Assembly: GCA_951406725.2 (NCBI GenBank)
Contig: OX597823.1
Location: 96,782,001-96,846,000, forward strand
DNA from: Octopus vulgaris
Lineage: Eukaryota
Length of the DNA: 64,000 nucleotides
Reading direction: 5' to 3'
Shown here: in pieces, positions 3,394 through 54,267 of the stretch
Layout of the letters: every line of letters begins with the position of its first letter
Numbering within the stretch: position 1 is the first letter of the stretch
Program-made: the position numbers and the translations under genes
The notes under the pieces: generated by a model
What the model was told of the DNA's origin: nothing
What the model saw: the letters and a program-made list of their open reading frames with translations, nothing else
Database searches by the model: none

Positions 3394-3620
3394 TGTCTGG
3401 GGAGAGTCATTTTCTTTTTGTGCCTTATAATGTAGCACACTCACCGGTAAAATTTCCACTTATTTCTTATTTTTATTTTCCTTAAGTTTTCTTGACTATT
3501 GAAAGGGTTGCAAGATGCAATGAAAATTTTAGGAAAATAAAAATAAGAAATAAGTGGAAAATTTTACCAGTGAGTTTGTTAAATTATAAGGCATGAAAAG
3601 AAAATGACTCTCCCCAGACA
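3394..3620. mobile_element. Palindromic element (~98-bp arms) with hammerhead-like motif at its centre; probable Penelope-like terminal repeat fragment
   Basis: Arms 3394-3491 and 3522-3620 are near reverse complements. Centre 3496-3532 reads CTA-TTGAAAG-GGTTGC-AAGAT-GCAAT-GAAA-AT-TT-TAG. Confidence 0.7.
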
Positions 3621-3648
3621 AAATTGTTAGTCTTTTCTTTAAATATAG

Positions 3649-4480
3649 AATGAGCTCTTCAACATTGAATTTTGTGAATTTGTCAGAAAGTATTAATGTG
3701 GGGAAATACGCAGCGAAGTTGTTTGTTTTTTTCAAGAGAAGGATGTTATACCTAAGAAGATGTATAGGAGGGGAACATTTTATGAACTTGAAACTAAACA
3801 CCATGGCTGTGTTTATTGGAGGAGTAGTAAATGTCCTGAGTCTGTCTCTGTGAGAAAAAGCACATGGTTGGAAGAGGGCGACTCTTCTTCTTAAGAACTA
3901 CAGCTCTGTTTTTTGTATTTCTTGGTGAAAGAACTGACCACAATTTATTTTTGTGTGGAAGAGTTAGGAATCAGCAGTGTTTGACTTTAATTACAGCAAT
4001 TATTTACGAAGCATGTGCAGAGGATTGGTGGTCCTGACCAGACTGTCAATATTGACAAGATGATGTTTCCCAGGCAGAAATACACCCAAGGAAGAATGCT
4101 GTCTGAACAGCGAGTCTTCAGCAATATGTGCCATGAGACACAAGAGGCATCTCTTTATGTTGTGTCTACTTGGAATTGTGGCACATTAGAAGAGTGCATT
4201 TGACAATCAGTTCTACTGGGAAAATCTTTCAAAGGCTTCTCACAGAAAATTAATGTGGTTTTCATTATGATCATGCAAAAACTATAATCAACATAGAAAA
4301 TTTGAAACTCCTCTCACAAGTCTGACAGTGTCAACATACTGAACGATCAGTGGAGGTGATTTAACATTTTGCTTGAAACAATCAGAACTGTGCTCACTGC
4401 AAAGACATTCACTCAGCACTTGGATGTAATTCACTATAAATATCAGGAATAGTAAAGTTTTTCGTAAAGACAGTAGAAGG
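3649..4480 (+). pseudogene. Decayed Merlin/IS1016-like (ISXO2) DDE transposase
   Basis: ORF 4015-4203 IGGPDQTVNIDKMMFPRQKYTQGRMLSEQRVFSNMCHETQEASLYVV matches the Merlin motif IGGxxxxVEIDESxFxxRKYxxGRxxxxQWVFGxxxRET. Downstream NQHRKFETPLT / QHTERS matches VNHSxxFVDPxTGxHTQxIE. Multiple stops and frameshifts. Confidence 0.75.
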
Positions 4481-5034
4481 ATTTTAAAAAGAGTCAATCA
4501 ACTTCATAATCTATTAAAATATTTGCAATTATTTTGTCTGCTTTACAAGCAAATTAGCTGTACTAGCCTTGATTTTTAAATTGTTAATTGCACTGAAATG
4601 CTTTAAGTGCTTGGTGAGTGTCTTTGCTATGAGCATTGCGCAGTTCTGGTTGTTTTAAACAAAATGTTAGCCCCACTTCATTTGGCTCGTAGGCTGACAC
4701 TATTAAATTTCAATTGAGTTATTATAAACCATTGAAATACTTGTCAGTTTACACAGTCTTGTTACAAGAGATGAACATCACCTACTCATGTTACTTATTT
4801 AAATTGCTTGTTGTACTGGAGAGTCCTAACGAGTGGAGGATACTGATGAGAAAAGGAAAGCTAATGACTTTTTGGCTGATACTCCCCTCCATGTTCTATC
4901 AACCCCGTGGCATTACCAGAAGATAGAGGTTCTTTTGGTGAGTTTTAGAATAGCTATCTCTACCTCATAGGGAAAGGAAGTGACAAGGAATGGGAGGGAC
5001 TTTTTTTTATCTTTAGTATTCCAGTATTTCACTG

Positions 5035-5248
5035 CTGTTGTTTTAACATCCACTTTTCCTTGCCAGCATGGATCAGACAGGATTTGTTGAATCAGATTTT
5101 CTTCCTCTCACCAATCTTCACCTGTTTTCAAGTCAGGTAATATTTCCCCATGGTCAGATGTTTTCACAGAAGATTGGAAACAAAGCGCCCTGCTTTCATA
5201 AGGGTGACACTTGTTTACAACTATTATGTAATGTTAAGACAAGGAAAC

Positions 5249-5294
<46 letters not shown>

Positions 5295-5490
5295 CCCCCC
5301 CCTCTCTCTCTCTTTCACTCACACACACATGTAGATATACATATATGATGAGCTTCTTTGAGTTGCTCTCTATCAAGTCTATTCACAAGGGCTGTAGTAG
5401 AAGGTGCTTGCCCAAGGTGCCATGCAGTGAGACTGAACCAGAAACCATGTGGTTGGGAAGCAAGCTTCTTATCCCACACAGCCACACTTA
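5035..5490 (-). mobile_element. SINE A head joined to RTE-type tail (family A2)
   Basis: Reverse-complement family A head 5345-5490, a microsatellite, then a tail resembling that of 23520-23770. Confidence 0.65.
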
Positions 5491-6173
5491 CAGTTCTAAA
5501 TTTTTTTCATAGAATTTCAATTTTTTCCTCATATTTTGTCCCCCAATTCTGTGCTTTTTCCCCTTCCTCATGAGGTACTGATAGCCATTCCAAAGCCAAC
5601 CCTTCTTTAACTCAATTTAAGAGAATGATTTTAAGCTTTGCTCTAAAACAGTTTTGAGTTTATAACCCCCAGAAGAGTGGCCCCAAAAGAATGTGCTGGG
5701 GTACATTAGTGTGCAACAAAATGTAACTAGGTACACTATGAAAACAATTAAATTATATTTTTGAAAATTTGAAAAACACAAACTGAAATTTCAAATATAA
5801 TTCTGATAACTAACCATGCTATTTTTTTACTTCTTACTGAGTCAAGTTGAAAAGATTTGATAATTTTCTGCAGTTCAGTCTCCTCCTCTTCTGCATCGTC
5901 ATCATCATCTTCATCTTCATCATCATCCTCATCACCATTGTTATTTTACATCCAACTTCCAATCTAAAATAGCTGATGTACATTAACAAATTTAAGTCAC
6001 ACATTTAAAAAGAAAAAAATCTAAATAACCACAGTTTAATTATAAAATTAATTATAATCAATAATAATAAAATATTTTCTTTAATTAATAAATCTACTTG
6101 AATTTCAGAATGTTGAAATAATGATAATAATAATAATAATAATAATAGTAGTAGTAGTAGTAGTAGTAGCAGC

Positions 6174-6212
<39 letters not shown>

Positions 6213-6732
6213 TTTTGTTTGTTTAAATTACTAAACAGCAGGGTAAAAGCTGAGAATTTTAATTTGATTTTTTAAAAAAAATTTATCTTGAAATCTTTAT
6301 ATACAAAGAATTCAGAGCAATTGTTGTTGGTTGTTGTTTAGATCTAGGTCAGCCCTGATTGAACAGACTTAACCAAACTATAATAAAAAAAATATACCAA
6401 CTGCAACTATCCTGTCGTTTCCCTATAAGCAGGAAACCAAGGAATGCATAATCCAGTATGTTCCTTTCCAATATGACAGGGTGGTAATATTTGAAGGAGA
6501 TTTGGCTATCATTTCTAATAGGTTGAGCAACCACATAGATTGGCCTTCATTGAAAGCAATTTGTTCCTATTCAAAGCACCCAGTATAGTTTGGTCATACA
6601 CTCTATATAAGATTAGTGTCACTTTATTAAATATGTTTATGCCATTATTAGGGTCTTCTGAAAAGCTTTACACTCTACTCTCCCTCAACAACAAGAAAAA
6701 AGGGACAGTAAGACTTCACACACACTCACACC

Positions 6733-6776
<44 letters not shown>

Positions 6777-6944
6777 TACATATTCATGCACTTATTCTTG
6801 TGACCTATCCTTTATCAATATGTTTTAACTATCCTATTGTTTGTAGAAACAAGCCATTTCCTTCCTGTAAATTCCATAAGTTCTTTTTCAAAGCTTTTAA
6901 TAGTTTAAAATGTAATTTCTCATTCTAAATAAACTCTGTAATAC

Positions 6945-7136
6945 TGACTTGGCTGTGTGGTTAAGAAGCTTGCTTACCAACTCTATGGCTGTGAGTTCAG
7001 TTCCTACTATGTAGCACCTTGAACAAATGTCTTCTGTGACAGCATCTGGGCTAACAAAAGCCTTGTAAGTGGATTTGCTAAATGGAAACTGAAAGAAGAC
7101 TGCTGAGCCTGGTTTTATATATGTGTATTTGTTTGC

Positions 7137-7204
<68 letters not shown>

Positions 7205-7510
7205 TTGTTTGCTTGTGTGTGTGTGTGTGTGCGTGTATTTTTTTGCTTGTGTGTGTGTGTGTGTGTATTTGTCTGCTTGTGTGTGTGTGTGTGACTCCTC
7301 TTTGCATTGTATTATAGCTGTAAAAGAGTGCCACCATCATGCAAGCAGTGTTTAATTTCTAGTCTTCTGTGAAAACATGTCTGGCCATGGAGAAATATTA
7401 TTGTCCTTGGGAATAGATGAAGAATGGTAACAGGAACGGCATCTAGCCATAAGCATTAGTCTCAATGAACTCTCTCCAACCCATGCTAGCATTGAAAAGT
7501 GGATATTAAA
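6945..7510 (+). mobile_element. SINE family A2 with expanded internal (TG)n
   Basis: TGGCTGTGTGGTTAAGAAG head; (TG)n 7120-7292; tail ending CCATGCTAGCATTGAAAAGTGGATATTAAA. Confidence 0.7.
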
Positions 7511-7789
7511 TCAAAGACAATGGATGCTGAATTCCACCATTGATATTATAACACAAATACATTTTAAAGAGGAGCATCCAGCCACAGGAACCAAACAAAT
7601 GTAGACATTGGCTTGCTAGTTCCTGTTAAACTGTCTAACCCATGCCAGCATGGAAAACTGATGTTAAATAACGAGGATAATATATACAATTGAATGAAAT
7701 GATAATCCAGTATATTACCGGTACATGTTTTTTGACTCTAAACAAATGAAAAGCAAAGTGGTAAGATTTGAACTGAGAACATTGAGGTA

Positions 7790-8282
7790 GGTGCAAGCGT
7801 GGTTGTGTGGTAAGTTTGCTTCACATGATTCTGGGTTCAGTCCCACTGGGCAAGTGTTCTCTATTATAGTCTCAGGCCACTTGTGAGTGAATTTGGTAGA
7901 TGGAAAATGATAGAAGCCTGTTGTGTGTGTGTCTTTGTGTCAGCCTTTGTTCCCCACCACTGCTTGACAACCAGTGTTGGTTTGTGCATGACTCAGCACT
8001 GTTTCTACCATTCTCAATTTCTTGCCATTTTCTATATGAGTATATTAAAGTGAAACAAGTACTTTCTTGGGTAAATATATTTATCTTTATACAAACCACT
8101 GGCAACTAAGTCACCATGACTTAGTGGTTCAACAAAAGAGAACCAATAGAATAAGTACCAGGCTTTAAAAAATATATAAGTATTGGGGTTGATTCATATG
8201 ATTGAAAATTCTTCAAAGCCATGCCCCAGCATGGCCACAGTCTAATGACTGAAACACGTAAAAGATAAAAAATAAAAAGATA
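7790..8282 (+). mobile_element. SINE family A carrying a 120-bp foreign insert (7988-8107)
   Basis: Family A head and tail on either side; the insert matches 11828-11947. Confidence 0.8.
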
Positions 8283-9099
8283 TTTCTTTGGATACAACAA
8301 GGAATTTTGTGGTATTTAGTGTTTAAGTCTTTGAGTTTTCACCAAAATTAGATTGGATTTGCTTGTGCCTCATCCAAAATCTGTTAATTTTTTTCTAATT
8401 TTTATCTAATCTTCTGTTAGGCCTTGCTTGTATTTGTTGCTGTTCTTTGCATCCTGAGTTCAAACTGTGCTAAAGTCAGTTCTGTGTTTCATGAGAGGTC
8501 GATAATGAATGAAGTATCAGTCAAGTGCTGGGGTACAACCCTCACCTCCACCCTCTTTCTCACCATTTATCACCTTGGATACTCCACTGGGTGGTAGGGT
8601 CGAGAGGGAGGTCAGTGCTTGCTCTGAAGAACATTAGTACCTGAAAAAGATTAGGGAAAGACATCTTGCATGCTGTGCTGATACCAAATCATGGTTGGCT
8701 GCCATATTTTGTTAAGCCTTATCTTACTTTTATATATATACACATATATATCTATATGTATGTATCTATCTATATATATATATATGTGTGTGTATGGGTG
8801 TGTGAATGTAAATGGTTCATTTTATGTGAGATAAACAAGAATTACATACCTGGGTTAGTATTTTATTTGATTGGTCTTATGCTCAGCTTGTTAAAAAAAA
8901 CAAGGTCTGGGAATGTAATCCTGGTTTATCTCATATATAAAGAAACTCACATACACTCACACATACACATGCATCTATCTATGTATGTGTGCATGTGTAC
9001 GTGTGTGTGTTTGTGTGTATATATACACCTACACACACACACAAACATACACACACATTTATGAATATACATGTGTATATATTTGTGTATTTGTGTATG

Positions 9100-9144
<45 letters not shown>

Positions 9145-9182
9145 ATAAATGTGTATATGTATGTGTGTGTGTATATATATAT

Positions 9183-10030
9183 CAAATCAAATCAAATCAA
9201 AATAGATGAACATCAATGGAATTTGTATCTTTGTGGTACCAGTGCCGGTGGCACACAAGAAAACCATCCGAACGTGGCCGTAGCCAGTACCGCATCGACT
9301 GGCCTCCGTGCCGTGGGCACGCAACAAACACCATCCGATCGTGGCCGTTCGCCAGCCTCATCTGGCACCTGTGTCGGTGGCACATAAAAACACCATCCGA
9401 AGACCTGGCAAGACTAGTCAGGCCATAACCCGTGGCCCCTACCTGGGACGTAGTCAGTCCACCTGTGCATACCTTCCTTCTTGTGACACTTGTGAAGACC
9501 TGTTGAGGCAAGTGAAAATCAAAATCAAATCAAATCAAAACAAATCAAAATAGATGAACATCAATGGAATTTGTATCTTTGTGGTACCAGTGCCGGTGGC
9601 ACACAAGAAAATCATCCGAACGTGGCCGTAGCCAGTACCGCATAGACTGGCCTCCGTGCTTTGGGGACGTAACAAACACCATCCGATCGTGGCCGTCCGC
9701 CAGCCTCATCTGGCACCTGTGTCGGTGGCACATAAAAACACCATCCGAGCGTGGCCGTCTGCCAGCCTCGTCTGGCACCTGTGTCGGTGGCACATAAAAA
9801 CACCATCCGAGCGTGGCCGTTCGCCAGCCTCGTCTGGCACCTGTGTCGGTGGCACATAAAATCACCCACTACACTCTCGGAGTGGTTGGCGTTAGGAAGG
9901 GCATCCAGCTGTAGAAACACTGCCAGATCTGACTGGCCTGGTGCAGCCTTCGGGCTCCCCAGACCCCAGTTGAACCGTCCAACCCATGCTAGCATGGAAA
10001 ACGGACGCTAAATGATGATGATGATGATGA

Positions 10031-10032
<2 letters not shown>
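9183..10032 (+). mobile_element. Young 5'-truncated RTE-type LINE 3' end with duplicated 5' segment and ~60-bp internal tandem units
   Basis: 9183-9400 is repeated at 9531-9748. Unit CCATCCGAGCGTGGCCGTTCGCCAGCCTCGTCTGGCACCTGTGTCGGTGGCACATAAAAACA occurs x3 at 9679-9860. (CAAAT)n and (GAT)n tail present; CpGs retained. Confidence 0.8.
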
Positions 10033-10078
<46 letters not shown>

Positions 10079-10109
10079 ATATATGTATATATATATATAT
10101 ATATATATC

Positions 10110-10483: not shown

Positions 10484-10495
10484 TATATATATATA

Positions 10496-20780: not shown

Positions 20781-20804
20781 TTATTTATATTCATATTTAT
20801 ATAT

Positions 20805-21094
20805 TGATAGAAATGGCAAGACAACAAAAGAATGAAAGAGACCTTGATATTATGTAAATAGAGGAAATTTATCTGTAAATGTAATATGAGACAATTATTC
20901 AGTAGCCAAGATAAAACTCCGAGTTTCGGATGTCGGGGCGGAAATCCACTCCGGCATCTCTTTAGTTATCGGGCCATCGAAAAAATGCTATGATGGCCTG
21001 ATAACTGAAGAGATGCTGGCATGGGTTTCCACCCTGACATCTGAAATTTGGAGTTTTATCATGGCTACCAAATAATTGTTACATTATATTTACA
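20805..21094. mobile_element. Palindromic Penelope-like terminal-repeat element (family P1) in (TA)n
   Basis: Arms 20874-20978 and 20992-21094; each arm holds a hammerhead fold. Further copies at 21677-21842 and 35898-36092. Confidence 0.75.
20995..21066 (+). ncRNA. Minimal type I hammerhead ribozyme motif
   Basis: GATAA-CTGAAGA-GATG..CATC-T-GAAA-TTTGGAG-TT-TTATC. The mirror arm (minus strand) has intact CGAAACTCGGAGTT; stem I is GATAA/TTATC. Confidence 0.7.
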
Positions 21095-21527: not shown

Positions 21528-21676
21528 TAATAAATAAATAAAATATATGCATATATACATACATATATGTACGTACCTACCTCTACATGTATATATACAT
21601 GCATGTATGGGTACAGGACACCAAAAAAACGTCGAACACAATGAGAAACGAAAACATAAACACAAAACCAAAGAAA

Positions 21677-21842
21677 TCTGTAAAATAATATGTGACAATT
21701 ATTCAATAGCCAAGATAAAACTCTGAATTTTGGATGCCGAGGTGGAAATCCACAACACCATCTCTTCGGTTATCTGGCCATCTCTATTTACATAATATTG
21801 AGGTCTCTTTCTTTCTTTTGTTATCTTACCGTTTTTACCAAT
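21677..21842. mobile_element. Rearranged copy of family P1
   Basis: 21677-21780 matches 20871-20978; 21782-21842 is the inverted equivalent of 20805-20863. Confidence 0.8.
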
Positions 21843-22567
21843 ATATATATATATATATATATATGAAAGGATTCTTTCAGTTTCTGTCTAGCAAATCCAC
21901 CCACAAGGCTTTGGTTGGACAAGGGTTATAGAAGAAGGCACTTGGCATGTGGACATGTATGGTTTACATGTGTGCAGTTATGTATGTGCTACAAAGTTGC
22001 GTTGTTTCATTTTAAAGTTGTGTTACCTGCAAACACCTGTTGCTACATGTTTAAACATTCATTTTATAATTGCACGTTCTTAAAATTGTAAAATATTTAC
22101 AATTGTTATAAATATAGATATCCACTTACAGCAGTCTGTGTTACCAAATTGCTTCATGTGATGATGAATGAGCTTCTATATGGTTGCTCACTCTGCTAAA
22201 AACAACAGCCAAATTTCTTTCAATCAAGCTCCAATGTTGTTAGAAAAAGAACACCTTTGAAATAACATGGTCCAGGATATTCTACCAAAACAAAATTAAT
22301 AAAAAGAAAGACGACAGGATGGTCATGGTTGGAATATTTTTGATCATAAGTCTACTCAGTCATGGTTGCACTAGAGCTAAACAGCAACCAAATGATGTTA
22401 TGAAGTTAGCCCTAACCTTGACCCACTTATAATGAAAAAGGAAACCTATCTGAGGATATCTGATATTTTACCCTAAACTTGATTTCGTTTGATAAAAAAT
22501 ATACTAAAATAAAGACAAAAGAAAACTTACTTCATTTTTGCTTAAGCTTATTCTATTATGTTATGTG

Positions 22568-23770: not shown

Positions 23771-25210
23771 TGGTGGTGGTGGTAACGATGATGATGATAA
23801 TGATGATTAATTAGTAAAGTTGTGGAATATTACAAAACACTAATTAATCTTGTTATTTTATTTTCTCTTCTCATTTTCCCAATTCTTATTTCATTTGTAT
23901 GTTGAATGTTCTAATTAAGAGCATTGCAATTTGAGTAGCCAGACTATTGCTTAACGAGACTGACAGTAATTTTGCTATTGTCCTTGTGAGCTTTTGCTGA
24001 CATACTTGCTGCTATGAATTTACTCAATTAAAAGAAAATTAATTAAATTAGATATCACAGACCTAAAGAATTAGTAAATAATTCTTTAAAGTGTGCACTG
24101 CACCATCACCTCTTAGATCTAACCATTAAAATGTTAGGTGCCACAATTTATACCTTTTTGTTTGCTTGATTCCTTCAGTGTTTCAGAAAGTAAATTGGTG
24201 ATTTGCAGTGCTTGAGAAGATCCATCCAGCTAAGCACAAATGAGGCCCTAAAGGCATGTCCTTTTTGTCCATCTTACTTCCTCACACACAAAATCTGTTC
24301 CCTGAAAAACCTCTTCCCCCCATAATCCATTTCCTTGACCCTTTCATCCCCCCCACCACCACCACCACTTGAACTCACCATCCATTGTATTACCCTCCCC
24401 TCTATTTCCCCACTCTCCTTCATGAACCTACCTGCTCACAGTTTGTCCCTGTTTTTCTCACAACACACCCTTCTAATATGCCCTCCCCTTGTCTGTGTCC
24501 ACTCATTGCATTCCCTCCACCCACCATCTCCTGCCCTCCTTTTGCAACATCACAAACTTACCCACCCACCCAAACCCCTAATCCACTTCACTAAATACAC
24601 CTCCCTGTAACTTGCGGGTGTTCTCCCCCCCATCATCTCATCTTTACCATCTTATCTCCCCCCACCTGAGACAACCATGTTTCTTCTCTAGTGCAACACA
24701 CCTTTTCCTGTCCATCAATAATACTCCTCCATCTCAGTTGAAGGGCCTTGTCTTCCAAGATTTTTGGAAAAAGCACCCACCACTCTCTGTAAAGTGGTTG
24801 GCATTAAGGGTGGCATCCAATCTTTGAAACCTTGCCAAAACAGAAGACAGGGATGGGTGCAGTCTTCTGACTTTGCAGCCAATTCCTACCAACCCATCCA
24901 ACCCATGCCAGCATTGAAAACAGTCATTAAACAATGATGATGCTGTTGATGATGGTGTACCAGACACCAGTGTAATAATGACAAAGTTATTTTACCAAAT
25001 TCTTTGTTATTCTCAAAATTTATTGAAACAAAGGCAATATATTTCAACAGAAATAAGATCACAAAGGGGTTACCCGTTTTGATACCAGTCCACCTGAGAC
25101 TATGAGGTACAAACTTCCTGTGTTAAAGTGATCTAGGAACAAAACAAAAAACTTGGCAATTCTGAAACAACAATTGTTTACCATATTTCTGTTGAGATGC
25201 AGCACAAAGT

Positions 25211-25261
25211 TTTGTCAGTGAACAGTTTGCAGTCTCAAAGCGACGAAAATATTTTGACAAA
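25211..25261 (+). ncRNA. Minimal type I hammerhead motif with G3-C8 swapped core, inside a ~260-bp element (25136-25398)
   Basis: TTTGTCA-GTGAACA-GTTTGC-AGTCTCAAA-GCGAC-GAAA-ATAT-TT-TGACAAA: perfect 7-bp stem I, stem II, palindromic AATATT stem III. Confidence 0.7.
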
Positions 25262-25978
25262 TTAAATTTAAATGTTGAAGTGAATCTAACGGTTTTTGTG
25301 TGTTTCTTAAATGGCTTATAAACACCTTCCACGCTGCAATTGTTTTTGTTCCAGCACACCATCTCAGATCAAGTCACTTGCTATGCAAGTACATCTCCAA
25401 AATACTTTTCTTTCATTTTTTTATGAAAACAATGAAGAATTTAGTGAAATAATTGCAATATTAAGTTGGTGTTTGGAAATTTTGATGGCACTTTTAAATT
25501 TAGATCACTTTAAAGTAGTCTCAGGTTGGTTGGTATCAAATGGGTTAAGTGCTTCCTTGTCAAAATCTATTTTCCTCTTAGCTCTCATCCAATCAAATTA
25601 TTCTTGTTGAGAAGAACATCAGGATTTCCTTGAAATTTAAAATTTTCAGCATTTAATTAATTTCTATGGAATTTATTTAGTGTATGTAAAAAGCATTAGT
25701 GCTGGTGCCATGTAAAAAGCACCCTGCACACACTGTAGACTAGTTGGTGTTAGGGAGACATCCAACTGCAGAAACCAAAACAGACTATGGAACCTAGTTT
25801 GGCTCCTGGCCTTGCCAGCTCCTGGTACACCATCCAAACCATGCCAGCATGGAAAACAGATGTTAAATGATGATGATGATATATGGTGCAGGCATAGCTG
25901 TGTGGTTAAGAAGTTCACTACCCAACTATTGGGTTCAGGTTCAACCCTCCTGCATGGTACCTTGGTCAAGTGTTTTCT

Positions 25979-30821: not shown

Positions 30822-32072
30822 TTAATATGGAATAGGACCACTTTTGGCAGTAATTACAGCTTGAATTCTATGAGGTATGGACTCGTAAAAAGTTTGAATT
30901 GTTTCCAAAAGAATTTTTGTCCATTCTTCAGCTAAAACAATCTCCAGTTCTTGTAATGATGATGGTGGAGGATATCGATTCCTTACTTGTTTTTCTAAAA
31001 TGCACCATAAATGTTTTATAATATTGAGATCTGGGGTCAGTGGTGGCCACATAAGATGTTCACTTGAATGTTCCTCGTGCCATTCAGCTACAATTTTAGC
31101 TGTGGGAATTTGTGCCTTATCATCTTGAAAGATTGTGTTTTCCTCCAGAAACAATTCTGCAACCATAGGATGAATTTGATCAGATAAAATGCTTAAATAA
31201 TGTTGATTATTAATTCTGCCACTAAGGGAAACCATTGGGCCAGTGGATTTCCAAGATATAGCCCCCACCCACTCCAATCATCACAGATCCTGCTCTATGT
31301 TTAACCCTTTCGTTACTGTATTTATTTTGAGATGCTCTGTGTTTCTTTCAATTACTTTAAATATAACAAAAGAATTTAGTAAAATAACTCAGTTATCATT
31401 CAGCTAGTGTTAGGAACATAAATTGTGAGTAAAGTTTGGTGGAAGATTTTAATTCAAAACTTATGAAAACAAGGCATTTGTACTCAGAGCCAGAGATGGT
31501 TTCAGCCGAGTTGGTAACGAAAGGGTTAACAGTTGGCAGAAGGCAGTCTGGGTCAAATGCTTCTTTTGGCTATCGTATACTCATCCAGTGGTCGAAAATA
31601 AGGTAAAGGATGACTCGTCCAAGAAAATAACATTATTCCACTGCTCTAGGGACCAATTCTGTAGGTTTTTACTCCACTCTAAATGTTTTACAACATTTGT
31701 TTTTGGAAGTAGTGGTTTTCTGATTGAATGACTCCTGTGAAATCCGGCTTTGTGCAGCTCCCGGCGAACAGTTTTTGTGGAAACTGGGTTCTCAAGGTGG
31801 TCATGAAGCACTGCAGTAATTTTGAGAGCTGTACTTTTGTGATTCTTTCTTATAGTTTGCTTAAGAGTCTGACGGTCCCTATCTGAAAGTTTTGGTTTTC
31901 TTCCGGAGTTTTGTTTCGACAAGGAGGTTTTTCTCTCTTTCTCAAAGGCTGTCATTACTTTTGAGACAGTACCTCTTGATACACCAAACGTTTCGGCTGT
32001 TTTCATTATGCTAGCGCCTACAATACGAGCACCAACAATTTGACCTCTTTGAAAGTCTGATAGCTCTGTCAT
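30822..32072 (-). pseudogene. Tc1 transposase pseudogene (paired-like HTH + DD34E)
   Basis: MTELSDFQRGQIVG..GRKPKLSDRDR HTH; FLDES, PTVKH..SVM, FQDD, WPPxxPDLNII(E>K) with 34-residue spacing. Stop at 31583-31581, frameshifts, MITE insertion. Confidence 0.95.
31305..31525. mobile_element. piggyBac-like MITE
   Basis: TTAA TSD (31301-31304, 31526-31529); 12-bp TIR CCCTTTCGTTAC. Confidence 0.92.
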
Positions 32073-33235
32073 TTTAATGAATTTTAATTATCTTTTTCTG
32101 ATGATATCTGAAAAGAAACAGCAATTTTAGCAAAACATATTAAGCAACACTTATAATGAATAAAAAAATATAAAAATAAACAAGCTTTTGACGATTTTAT
32201 AGATATTTCAAAATTATAATGCTATGATGCTAGGAGTTTCTATTATTTTGCCCAAACCCTGTATATATATGTGTGTGTGTGTGTGTGTATAAAACAGAGT
32301 TATTAGTGAGGGATTATTAATCTGGGCATATATATAAGCTCTCTGTCAGTACACCAGGCAAATAATGTTTTATTAGTAAAGAATTCCACATATTCTTGAG
32401 GTGATGTCTGAGGTTATAGTTCATCACCATTCTAGGTTTTAAGTCCATGGTTGTGCTCCAGATATATTGGTTTCTACATGGTACCTTGTCTTGTGTGTGT
32501 TTGTGTGTGTATTACACACATACACATAGACAAGTGCACACACATTCACACTTTCAGTTTCTGTCTACCAAATCCACTTTTAGCATTTTCTGAATGGCTC
32601 AGGAAGACCCTAGTTTATGTGGTAAACCTGGGGTTTATACTGATGACCCTTTCCTACACATGGTACCCATTTAAAACTATAGATCATGGCAGGGACTGTT
32701 AAATATTTTTATCATAGATATAACATGACATTAGTGAATACCAACTATCAATACTTTGGTTGTTTAATTCCTTGCTGACCCAGCCATCTGGGATTCTACA
32801 AGCCTTTTTTTTTTTTGGCCTTTTTTCAGGAACTTTCTCATCATTTTTAGATTAGCTTTTGAGTTTTTATTTTATTTTAGTGTGGTTTAGTTTTTGTATG
32901 CTGAAAGGCATGACTCTGCTTAACAACTGTCTGGTGTTCTGTAATACCATTGTGATGGTTAGAGTTGGAGGCAGACTCTCAGCAAGTTAAGGTCATGACC
33001 TAATTTAAATTCTTCCTGGTAATCTGTATTTTATGGTACTTAGTTGTTAATGCATTTAAAAAAAAAAAGAAAGCAAGAAAAACTCTTCTTCTGTAACCAG
33101 TTGCTTATTCATTACATTCTTGTGTCTAGCATATGTCCATTATTCCTCATTCTTTCTTCAACAAACATCTTACTTCGTAAGCCACCATTTTATGAAGGTA
33201 GAGATGAAATAATGATAATGATGATGATGATGATG

Positions 33236-33289
<54 letters not shown>

Positions 33290-33293
<4 letters not shown>

Positions 33294-33745
33294 CTTCCAG
33301 ACAGATAGGGTGCTAGAGTATCAAAGGCCAGATATAGTAACGTTTAGGAGGGACAAACAAGAGTGCCTAATAACTGATGTGGCAGTGCCAGGAGATCAAC
33401 ATATTATCATGAAAGAAGGAGAAAAGATTGATGAATATGGGGACCTGAGAATTGAGATTGTCAAGGATGTAGCAGCTGCGAGAGTGAAACATAAGGGTTG
33501 TCCCTGTTGTCATCGGAGCATTGGGTTCAATACCACCCAACCTGAAGAAGCATCTGGGAACTTTAGAAATACCTTACAATCTAGGCGTATTGCAAAAATT
33601 GGCATTTTTTGGAACTGCACACATATTGCGTAAAGTACAGTCTGTCTGAGGTACTTGTTGTGACTTGACAGAGTACAAGCCCCAGGTAGACATAATATCT
33701 CTAATCAACATCACAATATTTGATGCTGTGCGACTTCTTAAATAA
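33290..33745 (+). mobile_element. 5'-truncated R4/Dong-clade non-LTR retrotransposon (restriction-like endonuclease C-terminus + 3' UTR) in (TAA)n
   Basis: QTDRVLEYQRPDIV..CLITDVAVPGD..EKIDEYGDL../VVPVVIGALGSI..LQK..GTAHILRKV is the PD-(D/E)xK RLE signature; TAA repeats on both flanks. Confidence 0.88.
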
Positions 33746-35505: not shown

Positions 35506-35897
35506 TAAGCTGGTGTTTGGAACATAAGTTAGCATGAAATTTTGATGAAAAGTTTTAACTTAGGTCACTTTAATTTAGGCCAAAGTTTTATGAGTGGATT
35601 TGGTTGACAGAAACTGAAAAAAGTCCATTGTGTGTGTGTGTGTGTAAAATTTAAATAATCAGAAAATGGAGAAAACTTTTGATCAACAATGAAACAAATT
35701 GAACCACATCGGTTGACTATTTTTTAATACAAAGACATGTTTATCCTGTTGTTACCTGTCCCCTATGAGCATGGTTTGCCTGCATACCTATACCCAGGGA
35801 CAGAACAGGTAATTGATACTCATAATAAATATCGATACTATTATCCCTTAGTTGGTTACCACAACTGATAACTCTGCTTTCCTACATATATATATAT

Positions 35898-36089
35898 ATC
35901 TGTAAATATAATATGTGACAATTATTCAGTAGTCAAGATAAAACTCTGAGTTTCAGATGCCGAGGTGGAAGAAACTCAGAGTTTTATCTTGGCTACCGAA
36001 TAATTGTCACATATTATATTTACAGATAAATTCCTCTATTTACATAATATTGAGGCCTCTTTCTTTCTTTTGTTATCTTACCGTTTTTA

Positions 36090-36092
<3 letters not shown>
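35898..36092. mobile_element. Family P1 palindromic copy in (TA)n
   Basis: Arms 35898-35954 and 35971-36027; the right arm starts exactly at hammerhead GAAACTCAGAGTTTTATC. Confidence 0.8.
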
Positions 36093-36127
<35 letters not shown>

Positions 36128-45572: not shown

Positions 45573-46135
45573 TATTGCTTTTTTTATAATTTTCCATAAT
45601 GTATCTAGGAATACAACATCCAGCGTGTTCTTTTTGCCTTCCCAATCAGTTGGATATGGTTTGAGTAAGGTTCTAATAGGTGCCATGGCTGTTAGAAATA
45701 GCAGCCAAATCTCACTCAAACCTCATCCTATCATCTCAAAGACAAGATGGTCACAACTTGTGTTCCAGCAGTGACCATCCTGTCATTTTGTATAATAAGG
45801 CAGGATGGTCACAGCTGGAACAGCCGTACATTGTTTACTGTATCATTCTTTTTTTTATGATAATGTATAAATGTGTGTGTGGATGTATGTGTGGTGTGTG
45901 TGTGTGTGTGTGTGTGTGTGGATGTATGTATGGTGTGTGTGTGTGTGTGTGTGGATGTATGTATGGTGTGTGTGTGTGTGGATGCATGTGTGTGTGTGTG
46001 TGTGTTAATGTATGTGTCTGAACATATACGAGTGTGTGTGTGTAGATACAAGAAATTAAATAGTTATACACTCAGCCGAAACGTGTTAACAACAAACAAG
46101 AGGACAAATATCCATCAAATGTAAATAATGTACAT

Positions 46136-46600
46136 TGACAGAGTGGCTAACCAGCTTCCATGCCAGTGGCACTTAAAAGGCACCATTCGAGCGTGATCGT
46201 TACCAGTGTCGCATTACTGGCACTCAAGCCCCGTGCTAGTAGGGTATTAAGAGCACCATCCGAGCGTGATCGTTGCCAGAGCGGCTATCTGGCCTCCATG
46301 CCAGTGGCACGTAAAAGACACCATTTAAGCAAGATCGTTACCAACGTCACCTTACTGGCACCTGTGCCGGTGGCATGTGTAAAAGATTCGAGCAAGGTCG
46401 TTGCCAGTGCCACCTGACTGGCCCCGTGCTGGTGGCACGTAAAAGCACCCACTACACTCTCAGAGTGGTTGGCATTAGGAAGGGCATCCAGCCGTAGAAA
46501 CTCTGCCAGATCAAGATTGCCATCTGGTTAGCCAACCCTCAGTCATACGTCCAACCCATGCTAGCATGGAAGGCGGATGTTAAACAATGATGTTGATGAA
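46136..46600 (+). mobile_element. Family C RTE-type tail, same subfamily as 1-380
   Basis: Shares GCACCATTCGAGCGTGATCGTTACCA units and the terminal block. Confidence 0.8.
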
Positions 46601-46784
46601 TTCCTCATCTCTCAAATATGGAACTGAAACAATGATTACATTTGACAGAGTAATCAGAATGCAAACAGGTTAATGTACATTTTTCCCATGCTTACCTGAG
46701 TCAGATTTTCTACTGTCAACCTCTTGTCAACCCTCACCTGTTTCCCTTCCGACAAAGGTAATATGGCATCATTTGTGTGAGGCT

Positions 46785-47180: not shown

Positions 47181-48616
47181 ATGTCAAGACAAGGAGACTC
47201 AAACTCACACACACAATATGTAATGGGCTTTCAGTTTCCATCTACCAAATCCACTCACAATGCTTTGGTTGACCTGAAGCTATAGAAGAAGTTCTCTTGC
47301 CCATGGTGCCAGGCATGGGGATTGGACCGTGGTTGGGAAGCAAACTTCTTAATCCCATTGTCATGTCTGCATGTGCATATAGGATTAACACTTCTTTATC
47401 CAGTTTTGTCACTTCCTTTTCAGGGATTGTAGGGGAGACAAAGATCTGGCTGTTATTTATAGCACGTCAAATCATCCTTCCATGTAAAAGTCCCACTTGT
47501 TGGTTACCTGTGGTGTTGTTGGTGATGGTGGTGATGATTGGGGAACTGGAAGGAGCCAAAGATTTTGTTAGAAGTTATAAAAACTCAAGTCCCTTCTTCT
47601 AGTAAAGAAGAAAAAATGGCTTCTGCTGCTGTTATTGTTGTTGTTGATGTTAGTGATGGTGGTGGTGGTGGTGGGTTTCATCTCCCCCCTCCTTCACCAC
47701 CACCACCATAAAGATGATGATGAGTGTGATAATGAATCTATTTCTTTTTTTTTTGTTTCTAAACCAGACACAGCATTCTCTTTCTGAATAAAGAAAGTAA
47801 AAATTAAACATAAAACAAGCAATCAAACACATCTACATTTTTTCTCAGTATAACAACATTCGTTGTCATCAAGGCTGCCACCACTACCACCACCACCACC
47901 ATTATTAGCATCAATGCAACTATTATTGTAATCATTACCAAAACCATCACCACCACCATCACAGATATTATTATCATCATCATCATCATCATCATTATTG
48001 CTATCAAGTTATTACTGACACTTCCACCTTCTTTACTATCACTACTACCCTCATTAACCCCCCAGAGCAATCATCATCCCTACCACCACCACCACCACCA
48101 ACAACAACAACATCATCATCATCATCATCATCAGTAGCAACCGCAGCATGAATAATTTCAAAGTTATTCCATAAAGACCTACACCAGGATATTGAAAAAC
48201 ACATGTGAAAACAAAGAGAAAAAAACCTTTTAATTTAAGGTCCCTCACTTGGGGATTCAGGGGTTTTTATTTTGGAACAGCCTACATTTTTGTCTTCTTT
48301 GATATCATCATCATCATCATCATCATCATAATCATTGTTTTAACGTTCAGTTTTCCATGCTTGTTTGGGTCTGACAATTCTTTGGGTAGATTTTCTGTGG
48401 CCAGGTGTTCTTCCTGGTGTCAGTCCTCACTGGCTTTTAAGCAAGCTAATTTTGCCCCATGACCAAACATGTTTACATGCAAGATTGGTAAGGAATGGCA
48501 CCACTTGCATGACAGTCACACTTGTCTATAACCATTGTGCAATGTCAAGATGTGGAGGCACACACACACACACACATACACACACACACACATACACACA
48601 CACATTCACACACACA

Positions 48617-48647
<31 letters not shown>

Positions 48648-48819
48648 TCAGACACACGTGAGAGGCTTCTTTCAGTTCTGTCTACCAAACCTACTCACAA
48701 GGCTTTGGTCAGCCCAGAGCTGAAGTAGGAGACACTTGCTCAAGGTGTCACACAATGGAACTGAACCCATCACACAGCCACATCTGCTCCTACACAGCTA
48801 TTTTGTTGGTTATCCTGGT

Positions 48820-49285
48820 GACACCCATCTTCTCTTCATGATATGATTGCCATTATCTCTCAAGGAACTCACCTGCCTTTGACAGGTTTTGTTATTTAAT
48901 TCTGCCAAGTGCCCACACAACCTCCTCAAATGGAAAGTCTAGCACTAGGCCAATTTAGTCACCAACCACTCAACCATTAGCAAGTAGTATACAGATACCT
49001 GTAGCAGGTTTCTATCAACCCACAATAGAATTGGTCCTCACCTGACATACAATATCCTTAATTATCTGCAAACATCATACCTTCTCCACCCACTGCTGTT
49101 ATTTATTCAGAAGAATGTGTACCTGTGTTTTTTCTCTGCAAAGAATGTGACTGAGGAACCCCTCCATCTTACCTCATGCATGCAGCTTATATCTATTCAC
49201 CTCTGCTCCAGTATTACGCCTGACCTATCTCTCATTGTAATAATGTCTGTAACTGGCAGCCCTGAATTTTTGCACCTGACAGGAT
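48820..49285 (-). pseudogene. RTE LINE apurinic endonuclease N-terminal relic
   Basis: TMRDRSGVILEQR*IDISCMHEVRWR resembles the TMxGRSxExxxxLxRRxVDIxCxQExRW motif; heavily decayed. Confidence 0.55.
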
Positions 49286-49515
49286 GAGGTATGTGTGTAT
49301 ACATATATGTATGTGTGTAAATATGTATAGATATGTGTATGTGAATGTGTATATCTATGTGGGTATAAGTGTGGTTATGTGTGTGTATGTGTATATGAAT
49401 GTATGTATGTGTGTGTGTATGTGTGCATATATATGTGTTTGTGTGTATATATGTGTGCATGTATTTGTATGTATGCTTGTATGTATGTATCTATATATGT
49501 ATGTGTGTTTGTGTG

Positions 49516-49546
<31 letters not shown>

Positions 49547-49943
49547 CTATATATGTATGTATATGTGTAAAACCTTCCTTCCCTTACACACACACAAACA
49601 CACACAATGTGCCGCCTTCCATTTACAACAGAGTTAATGGCTAATGTTTACTGCTGGAGTAATGTACCATGTATACGTAAACTACAAACACTGCTGACTG
49701 ATCAATAGATAAGATAGGTGTCCCCCCCTTCATCACCACCACCGCTGCCATCTCTTCCTATACAGGATCCATTCGATAAGCTAATACATGCCCACACTCT
49801 CCTGAAGTATTTTTAGGTTATCTTACACAAGACATTATTCTTCTTAAGCACCTATAAATAGCTACTTTAGTATATCTGAGGCCAGACATGCATACACACA
49901 CACACAAGCACACACACACATGCACACACACACACACATGCAT

Positions 49944-49980
<37 letters not shown>

Positions 49981-50044
49981 AATATGTACTTGCATATGTA
50001 TATGTGTCTATGAATATATATGTATGTATGTATATGTGTATGTG

Positions 50045-50432
50045 TTTGTGTGGCTGTGTAGTAAGAAGCATGCTTCACAACCACATGGTTCCGGGTTCAG
50101 TCCTACTGTGTGGCACCCTACTATAGCCTTGGATCGACCAAAGCCTTGTGAGTGGATCTAGTAGAGACGGAAACTGAACGAAACCCGTTGTGTGTGTGTA
50201 TATATATGTGTGTGTGTGTGTGTGTTTGTGTGTCTGTTTTTGTCTCCCCACCATCGCTTGACAACCGATGTTGGTGTGTTTACGTCCCTATAACTTAGAG
50301 GTTCGGCAGAAGAGACCAATAGAAATAAGTACTTGGCTTACAAAGAATAAGTCCTGGGGTCAATTCGTTCGACTAAAGTCAGTGCTCCAGCATGGCCACA
50401 GTCAAATGACTGAAACCAGTAAAGGAATAAAG
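50045..50432 (+). mobile_element. SINE family A
   Basis: Head and tail motifs. Confidence 0.85.
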
Positions 50433-50527
50433 AAATATAAATATATATATCCATACATATGTATACACCCACAAATACAGACACTCACACACAGATATAC
50501 ATATATATGTATGCTTGTATGTATGTG

Positions 50528-50622
<95 letters not shown>

Positions 50623-51368
50623 ATATATATTCCAGGCATTGACCCTCTAATCTCTGGAGAGCCTATTTCCTATTAGGTGTGCCTACATTGTTGCTGTGTA
50701 TATGTGGCATGGAAACATTTCATGAGTTGGAAGATGAACACACACACATACACATAAACTTACATACATACACTTGCACACATATGTACATCCATACGTG
50801 TATATGTGTGTGTGTGTGTGTGTATATTTACATTAGTCACAAGTGTGATCGGTTTATTTATTAGATTTATTATTTCTAGTTTGACCCTTTATAATCTTTC
50901 CTTAGAATTTTTTCTGTATAATCATTTCCTCTGCATTGGTGTGTGTGTGTGTGTGTGCGCGCCTGCCTGCCTGTCTGTCCGTCTGTGTGTGTGTATACAT
51001 GTATGTACATGATCCTATTTACAAAGTAACAGAGGCTTTTCAGACTTGTCTAGTGCAAACTACTCGTGTTTTATGTTGACTTTTTTTTTTTTTCATTTAA
51101 TTAAATTCTACACAATTTATTAATTTTATAAACGCACAAGATTGATTGATATGTTAACCAGATCTCTGGGGTTCTTGTTTTGGGCCTTTGTCATTTTACT
51201 TTTCTGTTTCTGAGTATAATGAAACACACATACACACACATGCACACACACACACACACACACAAACAATGTGTTTATATATATGTTTAAGGAAGATATG
51301 TCCATAACTATATATATATATATATGGAAAATGGATGTTAAACAATGATGATGACGATGAGGATGATG

Positions 51369-51762
51369 ATAAGCAAATATATAATCACAAACGATAGATA
51401 AATGTCAGTTCATTACAGCTGTTTCTAACACACTTTTTAATAGATGAATGAGTGCAGTACATCATAGCAAAAATCCATTTCCATCAGATGATACAGGAGA
51501 TTTCAAACAATGGGAAAACAATTCATGAACACAATGGGAACACATTTGGACACCAGCCCAAGCTGGCCTGGAATGAGAGAACAAAGAAAAGGCTATAATG
51601 ACCATAAAAAGAGCTAGAGAGACATTAGGAGTTTAGTTAGTGGATAAGGGCATAGCCAACATACCTGTATGCTGGCTGTAAATCATCTAGTAAAAACTGC
51701 ATTAGAAACAGCTGTAATGAACTGACATTTATCCATAGTTTGCGATTTATTTATTTGCTTAT
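51369..51762. mobile_element. Palindromic element (family P3) with hammerhead-like motif
   Basis: Arms 51369-51447 and 51683-51762. Minus strand 51491-51410 reads TCAT-CTGATGG-[~55 nt]-GAAA-CAGCTG-TA-ATGA. Confidence 0.7.
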
Positions 51763-52836
51763 AATACACCAAAAGGAATTCCTGATCTGTTGGACATCCT
51801 GGAATTTACCAAACACCATGTGACCAATACAACATAGGCTTTGGACCAGCCCCAAGGTGTTAAATACTCATAACGGTTAAATTCTCTGTATGCATAACCT
51901 GAATATTTTACTGGGTCTACTTCCCAACCCAGTGTATTTATGTGACTAAACGTAGTGTTTACAAGTTAATTCAACCCAACCTGGTGCCTACTATTTAAGT
52001 TCCTGATTCTATCCTGAATCCTTAATATTGTGTATGTGTGTGTGTGTTTTCCATGCTGGCATAGGTTAGATGGTTTGACTGGGGACTGGCAAGCCAGTGG
52101 GCTGCGCCAGGCTCCAGTCGGATGTGACAAGGTTCCTACAACTGGATGCCCTTCCTAACGCCAAATCACAATCTTACAGTCATGAGCCCCTGTAATTTTA
52201 ATCCATGACTAACAACAAAAAAAAACCCACTTAGCTGTGTGGCCTCTATATTCCAAGAAACAATCCTTCTATCTGTAATGACTATTTCTAGAATACCTGA
52301 ATTTCAGAATTAACAGAATTTCATGCCTCACAGTTGTTGAAAGCCAATCACAACACTCCCACGTGCAAACCTCTTCAAATCCAGGATGGACTTAACATCC
52401 TGTGATTCAAATATTTTAGTCATATAAAATGCCATCTGTTTGTTATCTGTTACATTTTCTATTATCACATCTTGCTGTTTATTACCAATTCTTTTTTTTT
52501 TTTCTCTACATTCTGTGTTCAAATCCCACTGAGATGATAAACTTTGCCTTTTGTTTCTCCAGGCTCCAGAAACTAAAGTACCAGTAGAGGGGTCAAAGTA
52601 ATCAACTAACCCCTTTCCCTTAAAAGTTGCTCTTGAATTTGTATCAGAAACAATTGTTATACCTTACTGTTTTCCAGCTCTTAACATTCTGAGTTCAAAT
52701 TCCACTGAAGTCAACTTTGCTTTCATTCCACTGTGTTTGATAAAATAAAGTACCAGTCATGCACTTAGGTTGAAGTAAACCTCCTTCCCTTCAAAATTGC
52801 TAGCCTTGTGTGTAAATTAGAAACAAATATGATACC

Positions 52837-53043
52837 TATTTCTTTACTACCCACAAGGGGCTAAACACAGAGAGGACAAACAAGGACAGACAAACGGATT
52901 AAGTCGATTAAATCAACCCCAGTACGCAACTGGTACTTAATTTATCGACTCCGAAAGGATGAAAGGCAAAGTTGACCTTGGCGGAATTTGAACACAGAAC
53001 GTAACGGCAGACGAAATACAGCTACGCATTTCACCCAGTGTGC
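52837..53043 (-). mobile_element. Young SINE B
   Basis: TSD TATGATACC (52828-52836, 53044-53052); follows two older plus-strand B copies (52515-52830). Confidence 0.88.
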
Positions 53044-53391
53044 TATGATACCTTGCTGTATTTAGTTGAGTACCTTTATGTTCTGAGTTCAAATCCCAGT
53101 CAAAGTTGACTTTCAAACACTGAGGTTATTTAAAAGAGGTACCATTTGAACACTGGAATCATTCAAATCAACTCTTACCACCTCTCACATTTGAGGCCTT
53201 GTGTTACACAAATGAGAAGTTTCTTAAGTTACATAGATGGAAAGGCGACTGCCTCTTCTTCTGCTAAATACACAAGGATATTGAATAGATTTCTAAGAAA
53301 TTAATTAGATTTTTTCCCAATGATTTGGAAATAGGTTTAAAATAGAGGACACAAAATTCTGTGTGTGTGGTTATGTGTGTGTGTGTGTGGT

Positions 53392-53432
<41 letters not shown>

Positions 53433-53527
53433 AATAAGCAAATGGAAAACCTTTGTTGCAGCACACTTAATTAGTGCTATGTATGAGCAAACTATAACAT
53501 AAATCAAACAGGATGACAAATTTTTGA

Positions 53528-54267
53528 AGGTCAAGTTCCTTTATCATGGGAATACAAAATACATAAAAAATTCACTGAGATGTTAGATCTCAAGTGCCCC
53601 AAAATTATAATCCAAAGAAAAGCAGCAGTTCAAAATCTTACGGTCTTTTTGAGGACTGTGTTTGTATTAGGCAAGTCTTCCAGCCCAATACAAATAGTCG
53701 CATTTCTCTCATCAGAGGTACAAATAAAATGATTAAAATAGTTTAAAAATTGAGAAAGCTTAAAATATCTCCTCCTACTTACAGAACTTGGAGTCATATT
53801 GAGTAATGTTATATTGTTTTTTAAATGTTATAGAATCTTTAAAAAGGTTTGCAAGGATATAGAGAGGCTTGAAGGATATAGAAGTGGGAAAAGTTGTGAA
53901 TGAAAATGGAATATTTGTAAAATGAAATAAAATGAGGACTTGGGTTAAACCTGGTTAACCATTTAACATTTTTGAAGAAAATATAACATTACCCAATATG
54001 ACTCCAAGTTCTCTAAGTAGGAGGAGATATTTTAAGCTTTCTCAATTTTTAAACTATTTTAATCAATTTATTTGTACCTCTGAAGAGAGAAATGCGACTA
54101 TTTGTATTGGGCTGGGTAACTCGCCTAATACAAATGCATTCCTCAAAAAGACCGTAAGGTTCTGAACTGCTGCTTTTCTTTGGATTGTAATTTTGAAGCA
54201 CTTGAGATCTAACATCTCAATGAATTTTTTATGTATTTTGTATTCCCATGATAAAGGAACATGACCT
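53528..54267. mobile_element. Large palindromic element (family P4), ~300-bp arms, each with a long-stem-II hammerhead-like motif
   Basis: Arms 53528-53830 and 53964-54267. 54076-54160 reads ACCT-CTGAAGA-GAGAAATGC..GCATTCCTC-AAAA-AGACCG-TA-AGGT; the mirror arm has CTGATGA (53715-53709). Confidence 0.8.

Follow-up and report, generated by a model that had tools for sequence, protein, structure and literature searches.

Hammerhead-bearing 3′ ends of Penelope-like elements in Octopus vulgaris and natural variation of the 3–8 core pair

Origin of five hammerhead-bearing elements

We analysed a 64,000-nucleotide stretch of the Octopus vulgaris genome (contig OX597823.1, positions 96,782,001 to 96,846,000; hereafter the window), in which five short elements with minimal hammerhead ribozyme folds had been predicted from the sequence. 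We read these elements, with a probability of roughly 0.8, as 5′-truncated, mostly inverted insertions of the 3′ ends of Penelope-like elements (PLEs), each bearing a minimal hammerhead for which we predict slow cleavage, in dimeric form, within the parent's tandem transcript; most copies are likely inert. The families are named after the ribozymes of the window: F1 (3496), F2 (20995), F3 (25211), F4 (51410, minus strand) and F5 (54076). F2, F3 and F5 are traced to open reading frames (ORFs) with reverse transcriptase (RT) and GIY-YIG endonuclease motifs, and F1 and F4 likely come from such elements too. A further claim is tentative, and we hold it at rather less than even odds: that a young coding PLE family (F3) has fixed a G3–C8 core, so far a laboratory rescue mutant, in about ten thousand copies, that its sister (F1) has fixed U3–A8, and that an outside homologue keeps C3–G8.

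Hammerhead folds and the 3–8 pair in the families

Family copies were selected by their likeness to the window copy, and the best-scoring 25 (F1), 25 (F2), 30 (F3), 25 (F4), 25 (F5) and 20 (F6, a sixth family of the window) were compared; a decayed F6 copy at locus L139 was left out of the fold results. A first look at the host genome (2.8 Gb) gave 1460, 2125, 1579, 386, 113 and 435 candidates for F1 to F6, which are not copy numbers; each of the five elements is a dispersed repeat. The commonest letters of the best copies form clean hammerheads in all six families. The F1 majority has U3–A8, the core UUGAAAA plus an extra G, a 3-bp stem I and stem III AAUU, and that of F3 has G3–C8, a 7-bp stem I and AAUAUU. 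The other majorities are C3–G8, with ACUCGGAGU in F2 (T is commonest at one place through C-to-T decay), ACAGCUGU in F4 and ACGAUCGU in F5; F6 is also C3–G8. This bears out the original prediction of PLE-type minimal type I hammerheads with a palindromic stem III, and at family level the 3–8 pair takes the three Watson–Crick states that had been proposed (C–G, U–A and G–C). The palindrome had been credited to four of the five inserts; it is present in 5/5 families, that of F5 (ACGAUCGU) being perfect.

The 3–8 state is kept in most of the best copies (F1 U–A 23/25, F2 C–G 25/25, F3 G–C 30/30, F4 C–G 19/25, F5 C–G 22/25, F6 17/20), and all 11 core positions are intact in 16/25 copies of F1, 17/25 of F2, 26/30 of F3, 11/25 of F4 and 12/25 of F5. 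Contigs from four public runs have no alternative letter at 3% or more at positions 3 and 8 of the F3 hammerhead. Concerning the folds, the minimum-energy structures of natural F1, F3 and F5 copies consist of stems I and II with an open core, F2 comes near this, and 91% of stem II pairs are kept. The predicted stem III duplex is strong for F2, F4 and F5, and the predicted energy minimum of the F5 dimer uses an intermolecular stem III. Stem II is long in F4 and F5, and F4 lacks G10.1–C11.1.

The hammerhead was also searched for with positions 3 and 8 left free in 1.064 Mb drawn regardless of the motif (664 kb of C10 including the window, 200 kb of C3 and 200 kb of C15). There are 37 matches in 23 clusters: C–G 22, U–A 4, G–C 3, A–U 0, U–G 4 and other 4. 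Watson–Crick matches number 29, against a mean of 1.4 in 6 shuffles, and the remaining pairs 8 against 5.3; this relaxed search, proposed at the outset as a check, comes out in favour of the motif. Among the 8 non-Watson–Crick matches, 5 are single-copy in all fetched DNA and 2 belong to a single insertion, one in each arm, which clusters with a C–G copy; one U–A and one C–G match are likewise single-copy. Therefore, repeated motifs keep positions 3 and 8 paired. Over all fetched loci, a sample biased by the searches made, groups with at least two matches are 12 C–G, 3 U–A, 1 G–C and 1 U–G.

It had been foreseen that a CUGANGA search would miss some of these cores, and it does. Rfam misses them as well: no hammerhead family is among the 150 matches listed of 184 for the window, and in 4 loci whose copies are better kept, none attains the gathering score. 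Hence both kinds of descriptor undercount hammerheads in this genome.

A separate, abundant Neptune-type PLE family (L354, L355, L358) carries at its end a hammerhead with the core CUGUUGA, with U at position 6 (CUGUAGA in some copies), a GAGC/GCUC stem II and an ACGU stem III. It gives 18 matches in the 1.064 Mb and none in the window; the A6U core is another variant that escapes CUGANGA searches.

Copies in the window

The proposed layout (stem I, core, stem II, GAAA, short insert, UH, stem I′) is found at all five positions. The F1 hammerhead (3496..3532, +) has U3–A8, a 3-bp stem I, a 5-bp stem II and AAUU as stem III; its sense arm runs to 3623, and the inverted arm (3328..3491, −) is 5′-truncated and bears a tail of ~56 nt. 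The F2 hammerhead (20995..21066, +) has C3–G8 and an intact core, with C-to-U decay in stems II and III. Its arm extends to 21101 and is the 3′ end of a Hydra-clade-like PLE, and the inverted arm (20800..20978, −) carries a tail and a ribozyme with G5A. The F3 insertion (25195..25398, +) is the 5′-truncated 3′ end of a coding PLE with its tail, including codons 1–29 of the parent ORF from 25311; its hammerhead (25211..25261, +) has G3–C8, a 7-bp stem I and AAUAUU, has lost G10.1 of stem II, and would be cut after 25254. In F4, the arm at 51366..51624 (−) holds the hammerhead (51410–51491; C3–G8, long stem II, ACAGCUGU as stem III), and the opposite arm (51668..52035, +) has a long tail and the ribozyme 3′ half only. 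In F5, the arm at 53964..54285 (+), again a Hydra-clade-like 3′ end, holds the hammerhead (54076–54160; C3–G8, long stem II, broken stem III), opposite an inverted arm with a tail (53428..53845, −).

Several letters differ from those first quoted. The F1 copy has G at position 9, where the family has A; the F4 core reads CUGAUGG (A9G); and the GAAA of F5 is actually AAAA (G12A) in both inverted arms. With A9G, A9G and G12A, the core is mutated in three of the five copies of the window, in line with the expectation that many copies are decayed. Also, the plus copy of F2 has AUUUGGAGU, and the ACUCGGAGU quoted for it lies in the inverted partner with G5A.

It is very improbable, in our judgement, that the motifs are chance matches in foldback repeats or in repeats like miniature inverted-repeat transposable elements. 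A strict descriptor (3–8 paired, stem I of at least 4 bp, near-palindromic insert) gives only 2 matches in the window (25211 and 62607–62653), against 0.4 in 20 shuffles, and this would suit chance, as would the inverted repeats in which four of the five elements sit and the 3 bp of F1 stem I. The window by itself is weak evidence; the case rests on families, not window copies. There, the 29 matches against 1.4 expected, and family majorities that fit the hammerhead better than the window copies do, argue against chance. So do the arms, whose asymmetry and one-sided tail set them apart from terminal inverted repeats, and the ORF links, which already refute chance for F2, F3 and F5.

Coding parents of F3, F2 and F5

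A long F3 copy in the random sample pointed to the parent element. The ORF of this parent is open over 985 aa in L314 (209–3163, −), with RT motifs, a CX3CxxC linker and a GIY-YIG domain (Pfam E 1.5e-5; Atlas neighbours are RT/HTH_animal/GIY-YIG at 0.96–0.98); a PDB sequence search with it gave no match. In 6/7 longer loci, the G3–C8 ribozyme lies ~1 kb 3′ of this RT–CX3CxxC–GIY-YIG ORF on the same strand, and the untranslated region (UTR) between them is microsatellite-rich. Locus L323 reads ribozyme–ORF–ribozyme, with units 4,261 nt apart. Ribozyme and tail continue into the beginning of the ORF, whose ATG lies 57 nt beyond the predicted cut, and this gives a tandem of pseudo-long terminal repeat (pLTR), ORF and pLTR with a ribozyme in each pLTR; no such tandem with ribozymes was seen for F1, F2, F4 or F5. 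The F3 family is young, its protein copies being 92–98% alike. It has two subfamilies, distinguished by loop II, and the core is kept in both. There are ~7 F3 insertions in the 1.064 Mb, from which a rough extrapolation gives ten thousand or more. Inside the microsatellite UTR of one long F3 copy (L238:6155–7425) lies what we take from its motifs to be a mariner-like element.

A genome search for GIY-YIG gave 6136 candidates, of which 150 were scored; many lie in Neptune-type frames of 781 aa, a family with a U3–A8 ribozyme in both pLTRs (L324, L325). The F3 parent has the linker and the Cys/His residues, and, compared with the 781-aa family, ~65 more residues separate its RT motifs A and B. 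These extra residues resemble the insertion in fingers, yet the endonuclease is C-terminal. In the passages of Craig et al. 2021 (10.1101/2021.04.23.441226) drawn on here, that insertion is described only for PLEs with an N-terminal endonuclease, and Neptune/Nematis elements are defined by a CX2-5CxxC linker and a CCHH endonuclease, with no insertion in fingers.

The five elements had been called unrelated, which does not hold for F1 and F3. These align colinearly over ~170 nt, from stem I to the tail, with no large gaps (score 42; shuffles 23.3±3.8, 0/500 as high). They are the sole pair among 15 family pairs unmatched by any shuffle; the next best was matched in 9/500. The region 3′ of the ribozyme alone is matched by 15/1000 shuffles, and the tail positions are alike (+100/+156 in F1, +90/+148 in F3). 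On this sequence likeness, F1 and F3 are probably sister families. In an alignment of 9 natural copies, 3–8 is G–C or U–A and one stem II pair is C–G or U–A; each two-sided change counts as one event, as the two groups are related, and no probability is attached to them. A search for homologues of the F3 ORF gave 3 loci from 40 candidate stretches. One of them, the metagenomic L374, has an ORF 41% identical to that of F3 and, just 3′ of it, a C3–G8 hammerhead with the palindrome AUUAAU; one other stops before the UTR.

Two apparent features were set aside: the long F1 stem I suggested by the window derives from the inverted arm (the native upstream sequence differs), and an alignment score between F3 and F2 was due to (TA)n and is gone after trimming. 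Separately, L367, L368, L372 and L373 hold one F1 insertion with a 10-bp target duplication inside another repeat, multiplied along with that host repeat.

The parents of F2 and F5 are known from decayed ORF pieces, which were read by motif and do not cover the DKT motif. For F5, a decayed ORF with the endonuclease end and CxCX5C lies upstream of the ribozyme in 7/7 loci. For F2, a Hydra-like ORF end is present in 5/5 loci picked for long shared upstream DNA, with the ribozyme in 4/5. Based on the translations of these decayed copies, both parents have the CxCX5C linker and no CCHH motif and seem to fit the Hydra clade as defined in the cited part of Craig et al. (10.1101/2021.04.23.441226). 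Two other links of F2 were rejected. In L082/L181, F2 is separated from a GIY-YIG piece by an inverted arm and a stretch of (TA)n. The link to a Neptune-type ORF in L329 is a chimera, since the F2 UTR occurs in 1/7 loci of that ORF and the shared F2 upstream sequence goes to the Hydra-like ORF. At that locus (L329:1877–3059), a Neptune-type RT–GIY-YIG end is joined to the Hydra-like F2 UTR and ribozyme, possibly by a ribozyme swap or a nested insertion.

The original prediction spoke of ORF-less PLE derivatives. This has to be given up for F2, F3 and F5, whose longer copies continue upstream into same-strand RT/GIY-YIG ORFs; even the copy at 25211 holds 29 parent codons. The linked ORFs that were to be looked for are found for these three families; within 1.5-kb flanks, none was found for F1 (25+8 loci) or F4 (25 loci), nor any parent ORF for F6.

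Insertion anatomy and copy ends

All five families show the insertion signature of PLEs as set out in the cited passages, and 4/5 window elements have an inverted arm and a one-sided tail. Head-to-head inverted pairs with a tail on one arm make up 15/15 cases in F3, 25/25 in F1 (where the query was itself a pair), 14/14 in F2, 9/9 in F4 and 5/6 in F5. The insertions have two 3′ ends 45–320 nt past the predicted cut, the longer one on a single arm, and (TA)n flanks. Copy ends do not mark the cut site. The 5′ ends of F2, F4 and F5 copies spread over hundreds of UTR bases, and those of F3, together with the inversion joints, cluster ~14 nt before stem I.

The F3 cluster (window 25195–25200; L317, L323:3700–3725) has features of its own. 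The long copies read a branch point, a pyrimidine tract and AG there, and the cluster may be a 3′ splice site or a transcription start. The Penelope intron ends at helix I. A cap-derived extra G at F3 5′ ends was considered and rejected: it occurs in 20/30 selected copies and in ~2/7 unselected ones, and is ascribed to query bias.

These ends bear on whether the short copies are self-standing non-autonomous elements, similar to retrozymes or to short interspersed nuclear elements (SINEs), with a promoter of their own and re-amplified as such. We think this unlikely. Short copies do far outnumber ORF-bearing ones (1/30 best F3 matches extends upstream into the UTR, in a biased sample), the F3 cluster is also seen in 6/18 incidental copies, and the ORFs of F1, F4 and F6 were not found in the flanks. 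Three families are nevertheless contiguous with ORFs, the ends of F2, F4 and F5 are scattered, and the five elements are not tandem arrays, unlike retrozymes. Self-standing amplification can apply to part of the F3 copies, with their origin unchanged.

Proposed mechanism and points against it

Under the PLE reading, the palindromic stem III would bring two ribozyme halves together by pairing, with cleavage at UH. In tandem transcripts, and possibly with the PLE protein assisting, this cut might trim unit-length RNA or close it into a circle. The dimer would need tandem units (as in L323) or two RNA molecules. An inverted arm cannot provide the partner, because its ribozyme lies on the other strand; read-through RNA of such arms would form a long hairpin. 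cDNA would start downstream of the ribozyme, and, since copies extend across the cut site, its template would be RNA left uncut or re-ligated. The two copy ends would correspond to two internal RT start sites of the kind described in part of PMC11167929. Selection on master elements would keep positions 3 and 8 paired while their identity shifts between C–G, U–A and G–C, and inserted copies would decay almost neutrally.

Several observations weigh against this reading. In prediction, the stem III duplexes of F1 and F3 have hardly any stability (+2.2 and −0.2 kcal/mol) and the dimers of these families form without them, and the tested F4 copy is predicted to fold otherwise than as a hammerhead. 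The core is conserved only slightly more than the flanks: pooled departures are 61/1541 (4.0%) against 970/16318 (5.9%; p=0.001), so the predicted excess holds in the pool, but it is significant in 1/6 families (F5, p=0.04), and the flanks are confounded by alignment error. Slight conservation within families is what one would expect where masters are under selection and their copies decay once inserted. There is no pile-up of 5′ ends at the cut (3/72 F3 and 8/72 F1 ends within 5 nt of it; the F2 reference is too decayed to inform), which is consistent with cDNA running through the cut site. G12A in both F5 arms suggests that a template with a dead core was copied (gene conversion is possible), and the lack of linked ORFs for F1, F4 and F6 within the flanks covered counts here too. 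Finally, according to the relevant part of PMC11167929, the ribozyme of PAc (Poseidon PLE, Anolis) is dispensable for insertion in vitro and no RNA-seq reads end at its cut.

Much of this would suit another explanation, which we consider improbable, slightly more so than self-standing copies: the folds either are relics or serve, close to where RT starts, as a structural signal or a protein-binding site, cleavage is minor, and swapped 3–8 pairs persist as only the fold matters. Copies that span the cut site instead of stopping there, the G12A template that was seemingly copied, the weak predicted stem III of the G3–C8 and U3–A8 families and the abundance of the family with U at position 6 all point that way. 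The 3–8 pair, however, forms in the active conformation of the hammerhead, and double-mutant rescue has been seen in the laboratory. Moreover, what is kept across families (3–8 pairing, G5, G12, A13, A14 and a palindrome of varying sequence and length) is what catalysis needs. Published passages fall on both sides: in vitro, PAc with a mutated ribozyme inserts unimpaired (PMC11167929), and related PLE ribozymes cleave weakly as dimers (PMC4209133).

Comparison with known systems

The comparisons below are with passages of the papers cited. According to Cervera and de la Pena 2014 (PMC4209133), cleavage by minimal PLE hammerheads is weak and requires a dimer. The pseudo-LTR hammerheads of metazoan PLEs in that paper share with ours type I, a short stem I, a palindromic stem III, a U3–A8 variant and, with F1 and F3, an extra nucleotide between 9 and 10.1; as here, many unrelated families occur per genome, mostly as solo truncated copies, with opposite-strand pairs 100–700 bp apart. 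The differences are that its passages contain no mention of G3–C8, and those of its supplement no cephalopod, that F4 and F5 have a much longer stem II, and that F4 is without G10.1–C11.1. The class, U3–A8 and the opposite-strand pairs have been in print since that 2014 paper; what is added here is a variant, together with a system for testing.

The PAc tail is bounded by two internal RT start sites, the ribozyme depends on the protein, and the laboratory double mutant C3G/G8C partly rescues cleavage, with mutants still inserting (PMC11167929, Frangieh et al. 2024). Shared with our elements are the two 3′ ends inside the ORF start that give a tail, AT-rich targets, a ribozyme by the ORF start and an uncut RNA template. 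In F3, by contrast, G3–C8 is natural and family-wide, the linker of the parent is CX3CxxC (Neptune/Nematis type), its UTR of ~1 kb is rich in microsatellites, and the RT has a long A–B insertion. Hydra-clade PLEs (10.1101/2021.04.23.441226) share with the F2 and F5 parents the C-terminal endonuclease, CxCX5C, a hammerhead, (TA)n insertions, an inverted arm and a one-sided tail; the difference is that F2 and F5 are known from decayed ORF pieces only.

Natural 3–8 covariation to U3–A8 was reported by Perreault et al. 2011 (PMC3088659), whose core-variant section does not name G3–C8 or A6U. The small PLE hammerhead variants of Lünse, Weinberg and Breaker (via PMC6765202) share the PLE association, the short palindromic stem III and dimer cleavage. 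The literature searched gave natural G3–C8 nowhere, laboratory mutants only; its coverage did not extend to Lünse 2017, the likeliest place, which may already show G3–C8. Metazoan non-LTR retrozymes (10.64898/2026.07.22.740005) share type I hammerheads and a proposed PLE origin, and differ in being tandem ORF-less arrays. Tandem non-coding units, each with a hammerhead, define that class in the cited passages; the five elements are dispersed truncated ends of coding elements, their copies single or inverted and tied to ORFs.

Nearly all PLEs carry a hammerhead; it is weak in vitro, and insertion can do without it in the one reconstituted system. A G3–C8 family with a traced, recently active coding parent, a U3–A8 sister and a C3–G8 homologue would form a set for testing selection on cleavage and on its rate. 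If our tentative claim is true, one lineage shows all three states of a catalytic tertiary pair, PLEs would appear to be under selection for a ribozyme that works but is deliberately slow, and a large share of animal hammerheads, the abundant A6U core among them, escapes standard searches.

Other features of the window and the samples

The window has a GC content of 32–43% and is rich in microsatellites and SINEs, the latter seemingly of octopus type. Two more F2 insertions lie at 21676..21845 (no. 2, two short inverted arms) and 35894..36097 (no. 3, inverted arms mostly 3′ of the ribozyme core). The sixth family, F6 (62607..62653, +), has a C3–G8 hammerhead with an intact core and a near-palindromic 10-nt stem III. 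A further hammerhead-bearing family that came from the sample scan has fragments at 46072–46135 and 46586–46626. From motifs in the ORF list, we take 30822–32087 (−) to be a broken Tc1-like transposase, and 33208–33633 (+) is presumably a piece with a restriction-enzyme-like endonuclease motif. Outside the window, L271 (C3, ~50,145,400–50,146,800) consists of tandem 481-bp units, each with an intact C3–G8 hammerhead and an 11-nt palindromic stem III, and resembles a non-LTR retrozyme array.

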